From NCBI GenBank assembly GCA_964016885.1, contig OZ024745.1, forward strand, positions 106,950,001-107,014,000: a DNA stretch of 64,000 nucleotides. Direction: 5' to 3'. Shown here piece after piece: positions 8,624 through 63,944 of this stretch (the stretch's first letter is position 1; each line of letters begins with the position of its first letter). Source of the DNA: Eledone cirrhosa. Taxonomy: Eukaryota. The notes beneath the pieces are model-generated. The model had not been told where the DNA came from and did not search any database. It saw only the letters and a program-made list of their open reading frames with translations. Position numbers and translations under genes: made by a program.

Positions 8624-8765
8624 GTTATTCTGGGTTGAATCGGAAGTAACCACAGTAAGTAAGGTACTCAATACATTGCAGAGTATAAAAGTTTTAATAT
8701 AGATGAGATTCTACAGGACTAGAACTGTTTCATTCTTTAGAAATCATCAGGAATCTCCTGATGAT
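8623..8765 (-). mobile_element. Family E HHR mini-element (HHR at 8705-8757)
   Basis: Reverse complement reads gagattc-CTGATGA-tttctaaagaat-GAAA-cagttctagtcctg-TA-gaatctc (7-bp stem I). A short fold-back ctgatgattt follows. Confidence 0.85.
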
Positions 8766-8786: not shown

Positions 8787-9013
8787 ACAAAATGGCGTAG
8801 GACAGAACAAAGGAGAGGCACAGAAACAAAGAGAGGAATCCCCAGTCACTGAAGAGGTCACAGAGTGTGTGACGAAAGAACTATGACAATATATAAACAA
8901 CTATCTGGTTGTGGAACCAACCAACCAGAAATTTATAAATTTACTATAATAAATTGAAGTGAAAGCAACTGGTGCGTGTGTTTCTTATTGGCAACATGAC
9001 CCTCCCAAAGTAT

Positions 9014-15383: not shown

Positions 15384-15428
15384 GTATATATGAATGAAAA
15401 ATGGCGAGCTGTGTTGTTGCAATTATGA

Positions 15429-15828
15429 TATATATAATAAAATGAAGAATTAGAAATAGAAGCCAGGACTATTCATCATCAGTGGTCTACTAGCCATCAT
15501 AGGTATTTCTTCGCATTACAGACCATATACCTCCGGCTAGGACAATACAATAACTAAATTAAGTGATTGAGATAAAAACAATTGGGTGGGGAAAGAGAGA
15601 CAGGTAAACAAACAGGAATGGTGAGGCAACGTAAAGAGAGGAAAACATGAGAAAATCAAGTCAATGATTCATTTTGAACATAAGAACTTGCGAATATTGA
15701 CGAGAAGGCAAAGACACATCTTGGCTGAGCGAATGTGAGCGAGGAAAGAATTTCGTACGGTGGGGTCGATGGAGGAATTGAGAGAGAGGTTATGGATAGT
15801 CCTGGCTTCTATTTCTAATTCTTCATTT

Positions 15829-15840
<12 letters not shown>
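15429..15840 (-). mobile_element. Family K TA-flanked element with terminal inverted repeat and structured RNA motif
   Basis: Inverted repeat 15429-15472 / 15796-15840; motif at 15476-15540 homologous to 54293-54357. Confidence 0.65.
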
Positions 15841-15888
<48 letters not shown>

Positions 15889-23162: not shown

Positions 23163-23565
23163 AGCAATGGTATGCATCTATGTTTATCTAAACACGGAGG
23201 TGGCATTGCTCTACACTAGAATCTACAATATTTAGCTTCAGTTTTTTTTTCTTTTTTCTCAACGTGAGGAAATCTGAACCAAGCTCTGACAGACAACCAA
23301 AGCAATCATTCGGTCGTTTGAATGTCGTTTTGGGGACAAAACCGCTCTTACACACACACACACACACGGAGGCCATCTGCGCATTCTTCTCACCCCTCTT
23401 CCCCTTTCTATTCCTATACTTTTCTCGCTCTTACTTTCTCTCTTACTTTGACTTCCGCAGTATGAATAAATTATTTATAATATATGCGTGTATAAATATT
23501 GCAGGTGTGTTGTAGTTATTTATGTTTACAAATCCATACAAATATAAACACACATTCACACGTCC

Positions 23566-23607
<42 letters not shown>

Positions 23608-26600
23608 GTGTTAAGAGTAGGATGTTTGAATGCACGTGGCCTGGGCTCAACTTGGAAGCAAGCAAAGCTTCTAAATGACCTCAGGTCATGTAGTATAAAT
23701 GTAATGGTTATCTGTGAGACTCGAATCAGCGTCATGCGGCAGCTGGCCCCCACCTTCGATGACTTTGAGGTGCATGCATCTCTCTGTCAACCTGGAGGTG
23801 GGGGTGGGGTTGTCGTGCTGCTGCAAAAACACCTGGGTCTTGCCGTACAGGTTGTGCACTCGGACCCGGGGGGTCGTTTGTTGGTGCTAGACGTTGGCAG
23901 TAGTGAAAGTGCGGCCTTGAGACTGGTCGCCGTCTACTCCCCTTTCGGAGCTGAACGGCCCGACTTCTTCCAGCGTTTGGAGACTTTTCTGGGAACGTCG
24001 CGTTCCCTGCTTCTAGCGGGGGATTGGAATGACATCCTGGATGCACGTTGGGACTATGCAGGAGCATGTCCTAATAGAGGGGGGTGTAACAGCCTCAAGG
24101 GGTTACTCGACCGTTTTAACTTGGTCGATAGATATCGACTAGATTTTCCAACTGTGCCTACCTGGACTTGGAGAAACCACAGTGGTCAAGCTAGATCGTA
24201 CTTAGATAGATTCTTAGTTAGAAGTAAGGATAGGGACATATTAAGCTGTCCAGAAATGCGCACGGTTGGCTACACGGATCACAAATTAGTGACCTGCGTG
24301 GTCAATCTCGAGAAAACACATAGACAGGGTCCCGGTTACTGGAAACTTAATTTGTCTTTACCGGCAAAAGAGACTTACAGAAACCGGATTAGCAGATTAG
24401 TTAAGGAGAGGTTGACGGGTGCAATCGTCAACAACCGATGGTGGGCATCTCTCAAAAGAGAGATTAGAACAGAATCAATAAGTTATAGCAAGATGTTAGC
24501 TGCCAATAGGAATAGAAACGAGAAAGAATTAACAGGTAAATTAGAAGAGGCAATCAAGAGCGAAGATGTGGCCAGAGTGCTGGCATCGAGGACGGCCTTG
24601 AACCAGTTTTTCGATGCAAAGCATGAAGGCTGCGTCATTCGAAGTAAAATACGTGCTCTAGGTAATGAGGGGGCCAAAGCCGTTGGATGGGCCCGCGTGA
24701 CAGAAGCTAAAAGTGGAAATCGATCCACCATCCGGTCGTTGCAAGACGAAGATGGACGAGTGATCCGGGAGCCTAAGCAGATGTGCGAGGCCTTTCAAAA
24801 GCACTTTGCCCGATTGTTCGGGGGAGGCGAGGGTCCGGGCCGGGGCGTGGATTTCGGTCCATACCTCGACGGCCTGCCGCGTCTCTCGAACAAAGAGGCA
24901 GAGTCCTGCGAGGGACCAATCTCGGCTGATGAGATCGGAGATGCGCTGAGCCAATGCAGCAGACGCAAATCTCCAGGTCTCGATGGTATACCTTACGAAC
25001 TTTATTTAGCAATGCCGGTCTTCTTCTCCGAACTCCTCGAAGCGGTCTACTGCAATTGGCAGCAGAACGGGAGAATTCCTTGTTCTGTAGCCAAGGGCGT
25101 AGTCACGCTGGTGAGGAAGGACGAGAACAAGGGGGATAGTATAAATAATTTTCGGCCCATAACCCTGCTAAACACAGAGTTAAAGATTTTGGCCAAGGTG
25201 TTAGCAAAGAGGTTGGCGCTTGTCGTGGGTGGCCTGGTGGGAGATGCGCAGACATGTGCTATCCCATCCAGGTCCATTCACGATAACCTCCACCTCATGC
25301 GATACATCATAGAGAGGGTTGGCAACAAACCCGGCTTCGGTGGGGCCCTGATCAACTTGGATCAGTCTAAGGCCTTCGATAGGGTCGACCATGGTTACCT
25401 GGATGCGGTGCTAGCGGCGGCTGGGTTCGGTCCTGTTTTCAGAGGCTGGATCACTGCCCTACATAGCAACCACATCTGTTCTAGGATCAAGGTGAACGGC
25501 TACCTTTCGAAGCCGTTCGAAATCACACGATCCATTCGACAGGGGTGCCCTCTCTCCTCCCTTCTGTACGTATTGACTCTCGAGCCTTTACTGAGGAAGT
25601 TGGAGTTGTTGCAGGGTATCCCCCTGGAACCAGGTTTGAGCAAAGCGGTGTCGGCCTACGCCGATGACGTAACAGTAATGGTATCAACCGACTCGGAGAT
25701 CGAGGCGATCGGTACCTTACTGGAGGAGTACGAAAGGTTGTCAGGAGCGAAACTGAACCGGGAAAAATCCATCGGGCTGCAACTCGGAACGTGGAGAGGC
25801 AAACCGATGCCTCCTGACGGTGTCGTCGGACACTGGACGGAGGGCCCGGTAAAGTTGCTTGGGGTCTGGTTTGGACCGGACCTCCAGGTGGAAAAGAACT
25901 GGAACGAGGTTACGAACAAGGTGTTTGCACTAACCCAGAAATGGGCCAAGTGTAAGCTGTCCCTAAAAGGCCGGGCGGAGGTGGCGAACATTTACATAGC
26001 GTCCGTCACTTACTACCGCCTGACTGTCGTGCCTTGCCCTAAGGAAACACTCACCACCATGGAACGCATGCTCTTCCAATTTCTTTGGAAGAAGCGTCCT
26101 CCTATGGTGAGAAGATCCATCTGCTGCCAACAACCTTCGAAAGGAGGGCTGGGGATGCCGTGGTTGATGATGCGTAGGCACGCATTAAGGCTACGGCACC
26201 TACAGGTATTCCTCACTGGTCAACCGGTGTGGGCTCCGTTCGTGAAACGAGCCTTTCCGAGACTCGTCTCACTCACCGAGCTACAGTCCTGGGTCAAGCA
26301 AAGATCCGGAAAACTGGGAGACTGGCACACTGAGTGTGCTCAGGCGCTCAGGGCTCTCTGGCAAGCGGGCCGGGCCATCGGTGGAGAATCCACCTCATCA
26401 TTCTATAGAGGGCTGGTGGCTAGCAGGGGCGATGACACCCTTGGAGAGTCGCTGGACATGGAAGAAGACGAACTGGCCAGCCTGTTCGGTAGGACTTTCG
26501 GCCCAGGACCAATGGACAACTTCCAGAAGTCACTGGCCTGGCAGTGCTACCGAGGGGCTCTACCCGTTCGAGAGAGGCTCTACAGACACGGGCGCCCGGG

Positions 26601-27039
26601 CAGGGATCCCTCAAAAAAGATTTGCCCTAGATGCGTGCGTCACGAAGAAACCGTGACGCACGCATTGGTGCAATGTCCGGGCGTGGCTGATCTGTGGGGC
26701 TACGCCGAACAACTGCTGTCGCGGGTGGCGCCGATTAAATTGACCGCCGAGTCCGTGATGACAATCAAACCGCCTCCCCTCTTCACAAAGGAAGCAAAGG
26801 CGGTTTTTCTGTGCGTAATAGCCATGTTGAAAGAGGTTGTTTGGTGGACACGATTGAAAGGTCTGAGGTCAGGCAACTTCCTCTCTGGCCATAGTCTGGT
26901 CTACTTCTTCCGATATCACTTCGGAAGAAGGATAAGAATGGAGAGAGAGGTGCTTGGCCACAGGCAGTTTTATGAAAGGTGGGTGATAGTGGCGAGAATG
27001 GCTCGTGTAAATGGGCCTTCTCTGTATACCATCCTGTAG
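23608..27039 (+). CDS. L1/Tx1-clade LINE ORF2: APE endonuclease, reverse transcriptase and CCHC zinc knuckle
   Basis: 1143 uninterrupted codons. Motifs: LNARGL, AGDWN, SYLDRF, TDH (endonuclease); SPGLDG, FRPITLLN, KAFDRV, QGCPLS, YADD (RT); CPRC...H...C. The frame begins at GTG exactly where (TCTA)n ends, so it is 5'-truncated. Confidence 0.93.
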   Translation: MLRVGCLNARGLGSTWKQAKLLNDLRSCSINVMVICETRISVMRQLAPTFDDFEVHASLCQPGGGGGVVVLLQKHLGLAVQVVHSDPGGRLLVLDVGSSESAALRLVAVYSPFGAERPDFFQRLETFLGTSRSLLLAGDWNDILDARWDYAGACPNRGGCNSLKGLLDRFNLVDRYRLDFPTVPTWTWRNHSGQARSYLDRFLVRSKDRDILSCPEMRTVGYTDHKLVTCVVNLEKTHRQGPGYWKLNLSLPAKETYRNRISRLVKERLTGAIVNNRWWASLKREIRTESISYSKMLAANRNRNEKELTGKLEEAIKSEDVARVLASRTALNQFFDAKHEGCVIRSKIRALGNEGAKAVGWARVTEAKSGNRSTIRSLQDEDGRVIREPKQMCEAFQKHFARLFGGGEGPGRGVDFGPYLDGLPRLSNKEAESCEGPISADEIGDALSQCSRRKSPGLDGIPYELYLAMPVFFSELLEAVYCNWQQNGRIPCSVAKGVVTLVRKDENKGDSINNFRPITLLNTELKILAKVLAKRLALVVGGLVGDAQTCAIPSRSIHDNLHLMRYIIERVGNKPGFGGALINLDQSKAFDRVDHGYLDAVLAAAGFGPVFRGWITALHSNHICSRIKVNGYLSKPFEITRSIRQGCPLSSLLYVLTLEPLLRKLELLQGIPLEPGLSKAVSAYADDVTVMVSTDSEIEAIGTLLEEYERLSGAKLNREKSIGLQLGTWRGKPMPPDGVVGHWTEGPVKLLGVWFGPDLQVEKNWNEVTNKVFALTQKWAKCKLSLKGRAEVANIYIASVTYYRLTVVPCPKETLTTMERMLFQFLWKKRPPMVRRSICCQQPSKGGLGMPWLMMRRHALRLRHLQVFLTGQPVWAPFVKRAFPRLVSLTELQSWVKQRSGKLGDWHTECAQALRALWQAGRAIGGESTSSFYRGLVASRGDDTLGESLDMEEDELASLFGRTFGPGPMDNFQKSLAWQCYRGALPVRERLYRHGRPGRDPSKKICPRCVRHEETVTHALVQCPGVADLWGYAEQLLSRVAPIKLTAESVMTIKPPPLFTKEAKAVFLCVIAMLKEVVWWTRLKGLRSGNFLSGHSLVYFFRYHFGRRIRMEREVLGHRQFYERWVIVARMARVNGPSLYTIL

Positions 27040-46473: not shown

Positions 46474-46562
46474 ATGGCGTAGACATACAATACAAATACA
46501 ACAGGAGGAAATATAATAGTACCACTGATGATGTTGCAGATGTGGAACGAAAGAACTTTGAT

Positions 46563-48040: not shown

Positions 48041-48285
48041 ACACATAAAGAAAAGAAAAATACTTAAACAAGTTTCTAAATCTAGAAGTAATTGTAAACA
48101 TGAATACTGTCAAAATATATGTGTTCTGCACATATGTTTTTCGTGGAGAGTTTTGACCGCACACACACACACACACATACACACACACACATACACACAC
48201 ATATACACACACAGACACACAGACAGACACACAGACAGACACATACACAGGCAAACACACATATATATATATATATATATGGAAA

Positions 48286-48358
48286 AAAGATGAAATCGAA
48301 AATGCAACTGGAGTCTTTTTTTTTAAAAAGACTTGAGTTGCATTTTCGATTTCATCTT
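48286..48358. repeat. Short fold-back palindrome next to (TA)n
   Basis: aagatgaaatcgaaaatgcaact...agttgcattttcgatttcatctt. Confidence 0.75.
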
Positions 48359-48455
48359 ATTTTCGATTTCGTCTTTTTTCCTTATACTTTCACTCGTGCA
48401 GGACACCTCGTTTTTTTTCATTTTGTAAAAAATACCTCACTTTCTAATATATATA

Positions 48456-49336
48456 CGAGGTGTGTTAGAAAAGTTCCAGGACTGATGTCACAAAAGATTT
48501 ATTTCAAACCCAAACTTCACAATAAGAGTTTTCTCCCTCAAAGTAATCCCCCTGGAGTATGTAACTGTAATCTTAGCTCTCTGCAGCGATCAAACTTTTT
48601 TCTTCATAATTTTATATACATGTCCTCTGTTTCAGGTCATCAAGCAATGAGCACAGAGCAACGAACAAACTTGAAAACACCGTCAGAAGCACTGGGATTG
48701 CTGCAGCAAGTGTATGGAGATGAGATGATGTCACGCTCACGTGTTTTTGAGTGGTGCAAGAGGTTTAAAGAAGGACGCGAGGACGTGGAAGATGACCCCA
48801 TGAGCGGAAGGCCCTCAACAACCAGGACTGAGGTCAGGCAGATGGTGCGTAGTGATCGACGGCTGACTGTTCGACTGATGGCAAATAAGCTGGGCATGAA
48901 TCGGGACAGCGTCTGGAAGATTCTCACTGAAGATTTGGACATGAGGAAAGTCTGCGTGAAGATGGTGCCAAAACCGCTGAACGATGAGCAGAGGGGTCGA
49001 CGGATGCAAGTGTGCCAGGACATCCTCGAGCGTCTTGAAATTGAACCAGACTTGCTAGGGACAGTCATCACAGGTGATGAGTCATGGATCTTCGAGTACG
49101 ACCCGGAGGGGATCCGTTTTGAAGACGTGGACAACATCAAAAAGGCCATGACGACGGAACTGCGGAGGATCCCGGAAGAAGCCTGCCAAGAGTACATGCA
49201 AGCGTGGCAGAAAAGGATGGAAAAGTGCATTAGACTCCAGGGGGATTACTTTGAAGGGGAACACTCTTAGTGGGAAATTTGGGTTTGAAATAAATCTTTT
49301 GTGACATCAGTCCTGGAACTTTTCTGACCCACCTCG
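48456..49336 (+). mobile_element. Internally deleted mariner transposon
   Basis: ~60-bp TIRs cgaggtgtgttagaaaagttccaggactgatgtcacaaaagatttatttcaaacccaaa and its reverse complement; TA TSD. Confidence 0.92.
48647..49270 (+). CDS. Truncated mariner transposase (DNA-binding domain and C-terminus; catalytic core deleted), 207 aa
   Basis: RVFEWCKRFKEGREDVEDD.MSGRP, KMVPKPL, TGDESW, then YDPE|GIRF...KCIRLQGDYFE in one frame. Confidence 0.65.
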   Translation: MSTEQRTNLKTPSEALGLLQQVYGDEMMSRSRVFEWCKRFKEGREDVEDDPMSGRPSTTRTEVRQMVRSDRRLTVRLMANKLGMNRDSVWKILTEDLDMRKVCVKMVPKPLNDEQRGRRMQVCQDILERLEIEPDLLGTVITGDESWIFEYDPEGIRFEDVDNIKKAMTTELRRIPEEACQEYMQAWQKRMEKCIRLQGDYFEGEHS

Positions 49337-54190: not shown

Positions 54191-54230
<40 letters not shown>

Positions 54231-54231
54231 C

Positions 54232-54781
54232 ATGAGAAGAAAGAGGAATACTGCGTGGTTGCACATGGGTTACATATTATAAAATTAGTCCCTCGTCAGT
54301 GATTTGCCAACCATCATTGGTATTTCATCGCATTAAAAATCATATACCTCAGGTTGGTGCGAGCAATAACTAAAATAAGCTATTGGGACAAGTGAATCGC
54401 GTAAAGCGAGTGAGACAAGTAAGCAACAGGCAAGGATAAAAGCAAACCGAAGATAGGAAAAAAAACAAGCAACATGGTTATCCGGTCAGCATAAGCCGGG
54501 TGAATTTCATGAGCGATCAGAATACAGACCGTCCGACGAGAGTGAGATGTGAGCAAGAAAGGACCCCACTACTAACGAAACGGGAGGAAGTGAGAAGGGG
54601 AGAAACAGAGAGTGAGTGAGTGGAAGTGCGAGGAAGAGGTCAGTCGAGAGAAAGTGTAACTGACAGAGCGGGCGAAAGAAGGTAAGAGAAACAGAGAGAA
54701 CGGGGGAGCAGTAAGAGAGAAAGAGAGAAACAGACAAACGCAGGCGAGGTAAATATGTATAAAAAACAGGAGAAGAAAGAG

Positions 54782-54786
<5 letters not shown>
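54232..54786 (-). mobile_element. Family K element with 17-bp terminal direct repeats and structured RNA motif
   Basis: gagaagaaagaggaata at 54234 and 54770; motif at 54293-54357; (TA)n flanks. Confidence 0.65.
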
Positions 54787-63141: not shown

Positions 63142-63695
63142 GATAAATCTACCAAGAGTTTACGGTAGTGTCCAATCCGTATGAAGAACTCAATGTATTC
63201 CGGATATCATGGAAAGAAGAGATGTAATGAAAAATCACTTTCGGTGAAAGATAAACGGAATACAGAGTCAAGATAAAATATTAAACAAATAATGAATAAA
63301 ACAATGAAACAGTTCCTTATATTAAACAAAAAAAGTTCATTATTTAACGATCGTTTCTAGGATATATATGTGTTAGAATTGGCATGCATATTCAACAGAT
63401 CTATGTACAAAATTATACAAAATTATACAAACTATCAAGATTAAATATACATACCAAACACACATATATGCCGTCTTCAGAAATAATTGATTATTTCTGA
63501 AGACGGCATATATGTGTGTTTGGTATGTATATTTAATCTTGATAGTTTGTATAATTTTGTATAATTTTGTACATAGATCTGTTGAATATGCATGCCAATT
63601 CTAACACATATATATCCTAGAAACGATCGTTAAATAATGAACTTTTTTTGTTTAATATAAGGAACTGTTTCATTGTTTTATTCATTATTTGTTTA

Positions 63696-63754: not shown

Positions 63755-63944
63755 TTAATATAGATGAGATTCTACAGGACTAGAACTGTTTCATTCTTTA
63801 GAAATCATCAGGAATCCTGATGATTTCTAAAGAATGAAACAGTTCTAGTCCTGTAGAATCTCATCTATATTAAAACTTTTATACTCTGCTATGTATTGAG
63901 TACCTTACTTACTGTGGTTACCTCCGATTCAACCCGGAATAACG
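63751..63944 (+). mobile_element. Family E fold-back element (palindrome 63751-63877)
   Basis: 63-bp arms centred at 63814; CTGATGA at 63817; tail gtattgagtacc...ccggaataacg into (TA)n. Confidence 0.88.

Follow-up and report, generated by a model that had tools for sequence, protein, structure and literature searches.

Two copies of a four-helix RNA motif in the window

The window, a stretch of 64,000 nucleotides from Eledone cirrhosa (assembly GCA_964016885.1, contig OZ024745.1, positions 106,950,001 to 107,014,000), carries on its minus strand two diverged copies of a compact RNA motif, each embedded in a non-coding repeat unit (Table 1). Re-reading of the sequence confirmed the positions and spacing of both copies in the initial annotation and its four double substitutions, two in the helix that changes from ctagcc/ggctag to ccaacc/ggttgg and two in the helix that changes from tggtct/agacca to tgattt/aaatca. 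A third helix, ggtat/atacc, had been described as invariant; it is identical in the two window copies but covaries elsewhere, reading GAUGU/ACAUC, AUAGU/ACUAU and GGUGU/ACACC in other subfamilies. In the whole 3.0-Gb genome, a strict pattern found 6,345 matches (3,144 + 3,201) against none for the reversed control pattern (0 + 0), so the motif is not a product of chance.

Table 1. Features of the two motif copies and their carrier units in the window; positions are given in window numbering, and folds and cuts are predictions.
Feature	Positions	Strand	Details
Four-helix hammerhead-type RNA, copy 1	15475..15545	-	R1 score 80.2 bits (copy within the R1 training set)
Predicted cut, copy 1	between 15526 and 15525	-	GGUAUA^UGG
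Stem II, copy 1	15511..15545	-	leader 15545-15542 with 15514-15511; 15475 (10.1) with 15510 (11.1)
Bracing helix, kink-turn and stem III, copy 1	15490..15540	-	
Bracing helix strands, copy 1	15540-15535 with 15495-15490	-	
Kink-turn, copy 1	GA 15533-15532; bulge 15501-15499; GA 15498-15497	-	3n G, 3b U
Stem III, copy 1	15531-15527 with 15506-15502	-	
Stem I, GAA and CUGAUGA, copy 1	15476..15525	-	15525-15520 with 15488-15483; GAA 15509-15507; CUGAUGA 15482-15476
Four-helix hammerhead-type RNA, copy 2	54292..54362	-	R1 score 84.7 bits (copy within the R1 training set)
Predicted cut, copy 2	between 54343 and 54342	-	
Stem II, copy 2	54328..54362	-	leader UCGC 54362-54359 with GCGA 54331-54328; G54292 with U54327
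Bracing helix, kink-turn and stem III, copy 2	54307..54357	-	3n U, 3b U
Stem I, GAA and CUGACGA, copy 2	54293..54342	-	54342-54337 with 54305-54300; GAA 54326-54324; CUGACGA 54299-54293
Element 1: copy of a non-coding tandem unit of 574 nt, truncated on the 5' side and running up to (TA)n	15386..15789	-	92-95% to unit L003
Unit tail, inverted, at the 5' junction of element 1	15792..15846	+	
Roughly one complete unit (520-nt subfamily), running up to (TA)n	54212..54786	-	91-95% to unit L032

The units are pyrimidine-rich, non-coding, 520–640 nt long and arranged in tandem, with one motif each. Many copies of the copy 2 subfamily are 99% alike over 161 nt. Of 86 young copies, 77 have (TA)5 no more than 120 nt away on the 3' side and nine on the 5' side, against a background of 2,050 of 9,000 (23%), and the unit is present in both orientations at 15 of 90 loci. 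Copy 1 had been thought to be cut by an inversion directly after CUGAUGA. The tail at this point is instead the repeat's own sequence: it continues alike in the tandem units L003 and L010 and, among the matches listed, recurs in 28 of 30 dispersed loci with a visible tail, for a query that itself included the tail. The actual inversion is the inverted copy of the unit's tail at the 5' end of element 1, and the motif itself is intact.

Architecture of the predicted fold

Read 5' to 3', the motif opens with a leader, a, of 4–5 nt, followed by one base, strand b, N-GA, a stem III strand with U16.1, H17 and a stem I strand. A 5-nt linker (mostly UUAAU) leads into a', N11.1, GAAA with the other stem III strand, and a 3-nt bulge; the motif closes with GA-N, b', one base, the second stem I strand and CUGAnGA. 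The core letters CUGAnGA, GAAA and UH are complete in both window copies, and stems I, II and III flank the core in register. The proposal of hammerhead core elements in a non-standard strand order is thereby borne out, the order being S-G-C, and the pseudoknotted stem I (the tggtct/agacca helix) is likewise supported.

Stem II: The initial annotation could pair no stem II, yet pairs were found in both copies between the 5' leader and the bases before GAAA. Leader a pairs with a' directly before N11.1-G12 and is, on this register, predicted to form the hammerhead stem II, which draws 4–5 bp from the leader and 0–2 bp from the tail; the point at which the chain is opened slides between subfamilies. 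The window families lack the usual G10.1-C11.1. Their pair 10.1-11.1 uses the base after CUGAnGA and covaries, with U-A and G-U supplied by the tail in the window copies. This pair is present in 77 of 94 sequences (A-U 21, U-A 19, G-U 19, G-C 18; shuffle mean 46, maximum 60), and the remaining 17 have no tail-derived pair at the position. In LINE-borne and other-animal copies, the leader supplies the whole of stem II, usually with a G facing C11.1, and the base after A9 is unpaired. Two other pairings, a stem II drawn solely from the 3' tail and an extended helix between leader and tail (UUAGUU/GACUAA), were rejected, neither being kept across subfamilies.

By analogy, stems I, II and III would meet around the core as in any hammerhead. 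The 10.x strand of stem II would come wholly or mostly from the 5' leader, so that the chain would be opened just after A9. Helix b, which would follow the 10.x strand and precede the 2.x strand, appears to take the place of the helix that Eckert et al. call 'I'.

Kink-turn and bracing helix

The internal loop between helix b and stem III agrees with the kink-turn consensus, as had been suggested, with a 3-nt bulge, G1b.A1n and A2b.G2n and the standard GA/GA in both window copies. The same bulge and the same two pairs define known kink-turns, in which 2n is the position most often substituted (Huang and Lilley 2016, PMC5061560); in the motif, too, substitutions are concentrated at 2n, as in Kt-23. 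Among 145 members of the motif called on other grounds (see below), A1n is kept in 140, A2b in 139 and G1b in 121, and 2n is G in 99, U in 26 and A in 20, counts that reflect the search, since GA was imposed by the patterns behind most loci and G was excluded by the one behind some others. When both G's were excluded, 112 hits were obtained, compared with six in the control; the 30 examined were mostly from subfamilies with U at 2n, whose partner copies keep G1b, plus chance hits. The L300 subfamily may or may not have lost G1b in its master: the majority of a ten-copy cluster reads AA in place of the GA that holds G1b, a count biased by the search, and three of four unselected partner copies read GA, the other GG.

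Through the kink, helix b, the fourth helix, would leave the foot of stem III and turn back to lie beside stems I and II at their tops, where it would stand in for the usual loop-loop contact. This would answer the puzzle raised by Eckert et al. of how the end of stem III joins the stem I–II helix directly. Unlike in known kink-turns, the predicted K-turn here would brace a putative self-cleaving ribozyme, and a K-turn beside the core would be a natural handle for protein-switched cleavage.

Covariation across subfamilies

The check called for by the earlier reading, covariation in larger alignments, was carried out on two sets of sequences, and covariation persists in all four helices, across subfamilies and in other animals. 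A pattern required to carry bases other than those of the window at both positions of pair 15.2-16.2 returned 106 hits, compared with 10 in the control, and exposed many older subfamilies; 88 of the 106 were used, 12 being left out by eye as chance-like and six lying beyond the matches listed. Alignment A2 (MAFFT) holds 58 sequences taken by anchors only, chance hits included, and across its 22 pairs 75.8% of positions are paired, against 60.4% after shuffling and 33–45% when the strands are slid (score 0.453 vs 0.220). Alignment A3 holds 28 sequences from both sources, genome and metagenome, hand-picked for canonical spacing, and here 93.9% of the cells of 21 pairs are paired (93.5% in bracing helix b), against 63.1% shuffled and 31.5–48.1% slid. 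Its covariation score is 0.887, compared with 0.290 for shuffles, of which none of 500 reaches it, and 18 of the 21 pairs change on both sides; these shuffle statistics are inflated by related copies, copies within one subfamily not being independent. Pair-counting and type-counting measures on A3 were not above shuffles (113 and 249 of 500).

A held-out test gave a further line of evidence. Membership was decided on stems I and III only, which admitted 145 of 243 anchor hits; the bracing helix (at least 5 of 6 pairs) is present in 126 of these and stem II (at least 3 of 4) in 121, compared with 19 and 32, respectively, of the 98 non-members. Of 29 hits from a scan of metagenomes, 11 retain the four helices in changed sequence, and in most of these a G of the leader faces C11.1. 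On A2, a noisy alignment, RNAalifold returned no base pairs, and single-strand folding is not unusual (z -0.8 to -1.7), as expected for a double pseudoknot. Most loci came from patterns that impose the core and GA letters, so the conservation of these letters is independent evidence only in the set found through proteins (next section). N7 varies (U, C, A), as does H17 (A, C, U), within the H imposed in the search patterns.

A coding host: R2-group LINEs

The same four-helix fold lies 60–90 nt after the stop codon of R2-group LINEs, both in the E. cirrhosa genome and in fish-like contigs; in L349 and L336, the predicted cut falls 60 and 92 nt after the stop codon. In at least seven of the 11 metagenome members, a common region upstream forms the end of an ORF, and the relatives of this ORF are RT proteins of teleosts, amphioxus and a clam. 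The carrier has a single ORF with RT, a CCHC knuckle and a PD-(D/E)xK-like (RLE-like) end, and the best PDB matches of its protein are R2 proteins. We name these coding carriers HERO-like, presuming that they belong with that clade. R2 carries an HDV-like ribozyme at its 5' end, unlike the hammerhead-type fold described here, which lies in the 3' UTR. The HERO clade is listed among the RLE non-LTR retrotransposons (PMC4640811, PMC7650587). The carriers share with it the single RT-CCHC-RLE ORF.

A motif-blind protein search of the E. cirrhosa genome also led to the fold, which follows RLE ORFs at about 64 nt from the stop and has helix sequences that differ from those of the units. Of 21 parsed LINE tails, 12 have an intact core and 4–5 bp of stem II from the leader, and the rest are decayed or misparsed; in LINE copies the last stem II pair, directly before G12, is a G-C from the leader. 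Model R1, which was built without the loci of this protein search, recovers 19 of 30 of them at E<0.01 and 23 of 30 at E up to 1. A BLAST comparison of the units with the LINE of this genome gave no match below E 0.02. The HERO-like family is sparse and decayed here (10 exact 35-mers, copies 89–96% alike), and in two of four longer stretches a truncated copy runs directly into the next (partial tandems, L405 and L406). By eye, L393, L397, L399 and L403 form a second, older RLE-LINE subfamily; its motif, 3' of the RLE match, has CUGAUGA, a linker of 3 nt and a U at the predicted cut.

Occurrence elsewhere: In viruses, the short pattern gave 24 hits, none with the upstream block by eye, the full pattern gave none, and no ORF related to the carrier was found. 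A prokaryotic occurrence was rejected, 17 of 18 hits being unpaired. L367 (493-580) pairs at 20/20 and nearly equals L342; it lies in a 2.7-kb contig of a bacterial MAG, has a fish-type motif, and is probably host DNA in the MAG bin. Four-helix copies were also seen in AT-rich animal-like contigs with no linked ORF seen (L333, L339, L347, L351), possibly further non-autonomous families.

Relation to known hammerheads

The hammerhead is the best-studied small ribozyme. The window has no Rfam match at gathering score, and at E up to 10 no ribozyme family appears among 112 matches for five loci, which include a weak match (E 3) of a C/D snoRNA to part of copy 2. The initial annotation had called the motif unassigned. 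This holds for Rfam; the S-G-C order itself has been published, as type SGC (PMC10085705), though the wiring here departs from what that type requires of stem II. The suggestion of a regulatory fold upstream of a truncated hammerhead finds no support.

Type-SGC hammerheads (HRIMA-1 and variants) were described by Eckert et al. in 2023 from metatranscriptomes only, and were found in the genome of no known organism; five relatives cleave in vitro, and an extra U after A9 is tolerated (PMC10085705). The authors assume that CUGAnGA and its adjacent paired strands are inseparable and derive six block orders on that basis (PMC10085705). Their descriptor requires CUGAUGA(U)G plus 2–6 bp of stem II and therefore cannot find a form in which the strand after CUGAUGA is split off; 33 variant rows inspected in the supplement all have a stem II strand after CUGAnGA (PMC10085705). 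The present motif shares with type SGC, as described there, the S-G-C block order, the full core, the short linker between stems I and II and, on an equivalence that we infer, a fourth helix joining the free strands of these stems. It differs in that the stem II strand comes from the 5' leader rather than directly after CUGAnGA, so that block C is broken; in that a K-turn sequence connects both strands of the helix corresponding to 'I' with stem III; and in its presence in animal retroelements. A word search of the text and supplement of Eckert et al., as available, found no kink-turn wording (PMC10085705). On these sequence features, the motif appears to be a hammerhead-type RNA with a new wiring and no member of type SGC as defined.

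A literature search covering mainly openly available papers returned no description of a split-block-C, K-turn-braced hammerhead wiring and no report of a hammerhead in a HERO 3' UTR; type-SGC hammerheads returned only the paper of Eckert et al., and hammerhead and kink-turn combined with Penelope or retrotransposon returned none. For variant layouts, a 2026 paper, in its accessible part, cites only Eckert et al. and one other (PMC13725137).

The units resemble non-LTR retrozymes in being non-coding and tandem with one (here putative) ribozyme each (Cervera and de la Pena 2020, PMC7229834), and in their thousands of copies and low GC (PMC7229834; Li et al. 2026 preprint 10.64898/2026.07.22.740005). 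In contrast, retrozymes are described as carrying type I hammerheads and as tied to Penelope pLTRs, whereas the unit here carries the S-G-C form and the rewired form is found in RLE LINEs.

Cleavage and alternative readings

We consider it probable that the RNA self-cleaves after GGUAUA. Tandem transcripts would be cut into monomers and the monomers closed into circles; reverse transcription would start 17–95 nt behind CUGAnGA and run round the circle. Copying of this kind from behind the ribozyme would account for the form of the insertions, in which an incomplete copy comes first and the end lies just beyond a complete motif. The cleavage, the circles and a helper are all read from sequence and remain conditional. 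For the broader proposal, that nature holds a hammerhead wiring outside the six block orders, with block C opened, braced by a kink-turn, active, and standard in HERO-like LINEs across animals, we see the case for and against as evenly balanced.

Several observations temper the reading of cleavage. An A9 without a full stem II strand after it counts against it, Eckert et al. having assumed this strand to be necessary (PMC10085705). So do the lack of G10.1-C11.1 in the window families and the 17 of 94 sequences in which the tail supplies no pair there. Moreover, no pile-up of 5' ends was seen at the predicted cut in 21 distinct loci among the matches listed: of the TA-joined 5' ends, three of 21 fall at the cut and eight of 21 at the UAA linker, where they follow TA microhomology (distinct loci among the first 100 of 3,978 overlapping matches). 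A circular template does not require such a pile-up, yet its absence lends no support.

Recognition structure: The missing pile-up would also suit a fold that does not cut, perhaps a former ribozyme, serving as a 3' recognition structure that the LINE protein binds to start reverse transcription and that the units keep for their mobilisation. The location of the fold in the 3' UTR, 60 and 92 nt behind the stop codon in L349 and L336, and the retention of the whole motif at the 3' end of insertions fit this as well, and we regard it as the most serious rival, though an unlikely one. A mere binding site would not call for a helix before GAAA in the exact register of stem II, with its last pair directly before G12 and a G-C in the LINEs, nor for N7 and H17 that vary as in hammerheads (H being imposed in the patterns). 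Furthermore, the helices of the units and those of the LINE in this genome are free to differ in sequence, unlike the tail shared by a SINE and its LINE.

Conditional activity: Still less probable, and to our minds rather doubtful, is a ribozyme that would be slow or inactive by itself and would need a K-turn-binding protein (15.5K/L7Ae type), or an exchange of strands between leader and tail, to turn it on. Ion-induced folding of a K-turn is permitted by G at 3n or C at 3b (PMC4382518); U.U at 3b.3n, outside this rule, occurs in six of 19 clusters, window copy 2 among them, which points towards a protein requirement. The sliding of the opening point between subfamilies and the poor cleavage of metazoan PLE hammerheads alone (PMC4209133) lean the same way. 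Against this, copy 1 and the LINE of the same genome have G at 3n and should fold with ions by the rule (PMC4382518).

Shared repeat ancestry without selected structure, which could draw on the non-independence of copies within a subfamily, is strongly disfavoured by compensatory changes in all four helices between subfamilies and distant animals, by the collapse of the slid controls, and by prokaryotic chance hits that pair at most at 12/20 (17 of 18 hits).

If the preferred reading of an active, rewired hammerhead is true, an R2-group LINE gains a Penelope-like, ribozyme-processed and probably circular RNA cycle, and its ribozyme has been passed on to parasitic units moved by another machine. 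A conserved split of block C would break the six-order enumeration and would explain why thousands of copies in animal genomes escaped searches by descriptor and with Rfam. It would also place non-circular permutations in cellular genomes and tie a hammerhead to an RLE LINE.

The helper of the non-coding units

Truncation, 5' inversion, partial tandems and a microsatellite bias are reported as Penelope-like traits (PMC8557442), and internal priming by a PLE protein has been reported (PMC11167929). Intact Penelope-like ORFs, 98–99% alike, abound in the genome. Since the HERO-like family is sparse and decayed and the copy 2 subfamily is young, a Penelope-like element is the most likely helper for the young window families. 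The ribozyme-like fold would be shared between the units and HERO-like LINEs, and the helper borrowed.

An origin of the motif in a Penelope pLTR was rejected for three families. These lack the motif (in 90 loci, eight model hits in seven loci with no shared place on the coding strand), as do 10 further flanks of one Penelope-like family, and the motifs in the flanks of L285 and L286 are separate insertions split off by (TA)n. A young Penelope-like family (L095/L439, L096/L442, L102/L444) has frames as long as 1,289 aa, and its 3' region exceeds 2 kb and consists largely of TG/TA microsatellite-like sequence; the family's shared part yielded no CUGAnGA..GAAA motif. Another repeat, in L234 (3400-4100), L141 and L145, has a minimal CUGAUGA-C-GAAA core with no stem II and precedes a Penelope-like RT of the same orientation by about 600 nt; these loci were rejected as members, being false positives of the search pattern from another repeat family.

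Further features of the window

Motifs that resemble ordinary type I hammerheads, have a very small stem III and belong to another repeat family lie at 8843-8893 (+) and 36923-36873 (-), with a weaker one near 46525 (+). At 23548-27039 (+), an open frame of 1,163 aa has endonuclease, RT and zf-RVT domains, and we take it to be an L1/Tx1-like LINE; 48104-49270 (+) holds a remnant of a Mariner/Mos1-type transposase HTH. Near-perfect palindromes lie at about 63766-63853 and 63445-63532. The former contains CUGAUGA and GAAAC, has relatives near 8700 and 55440, and is perhaps the inverted end of a hammerhead-bearing retroelement.
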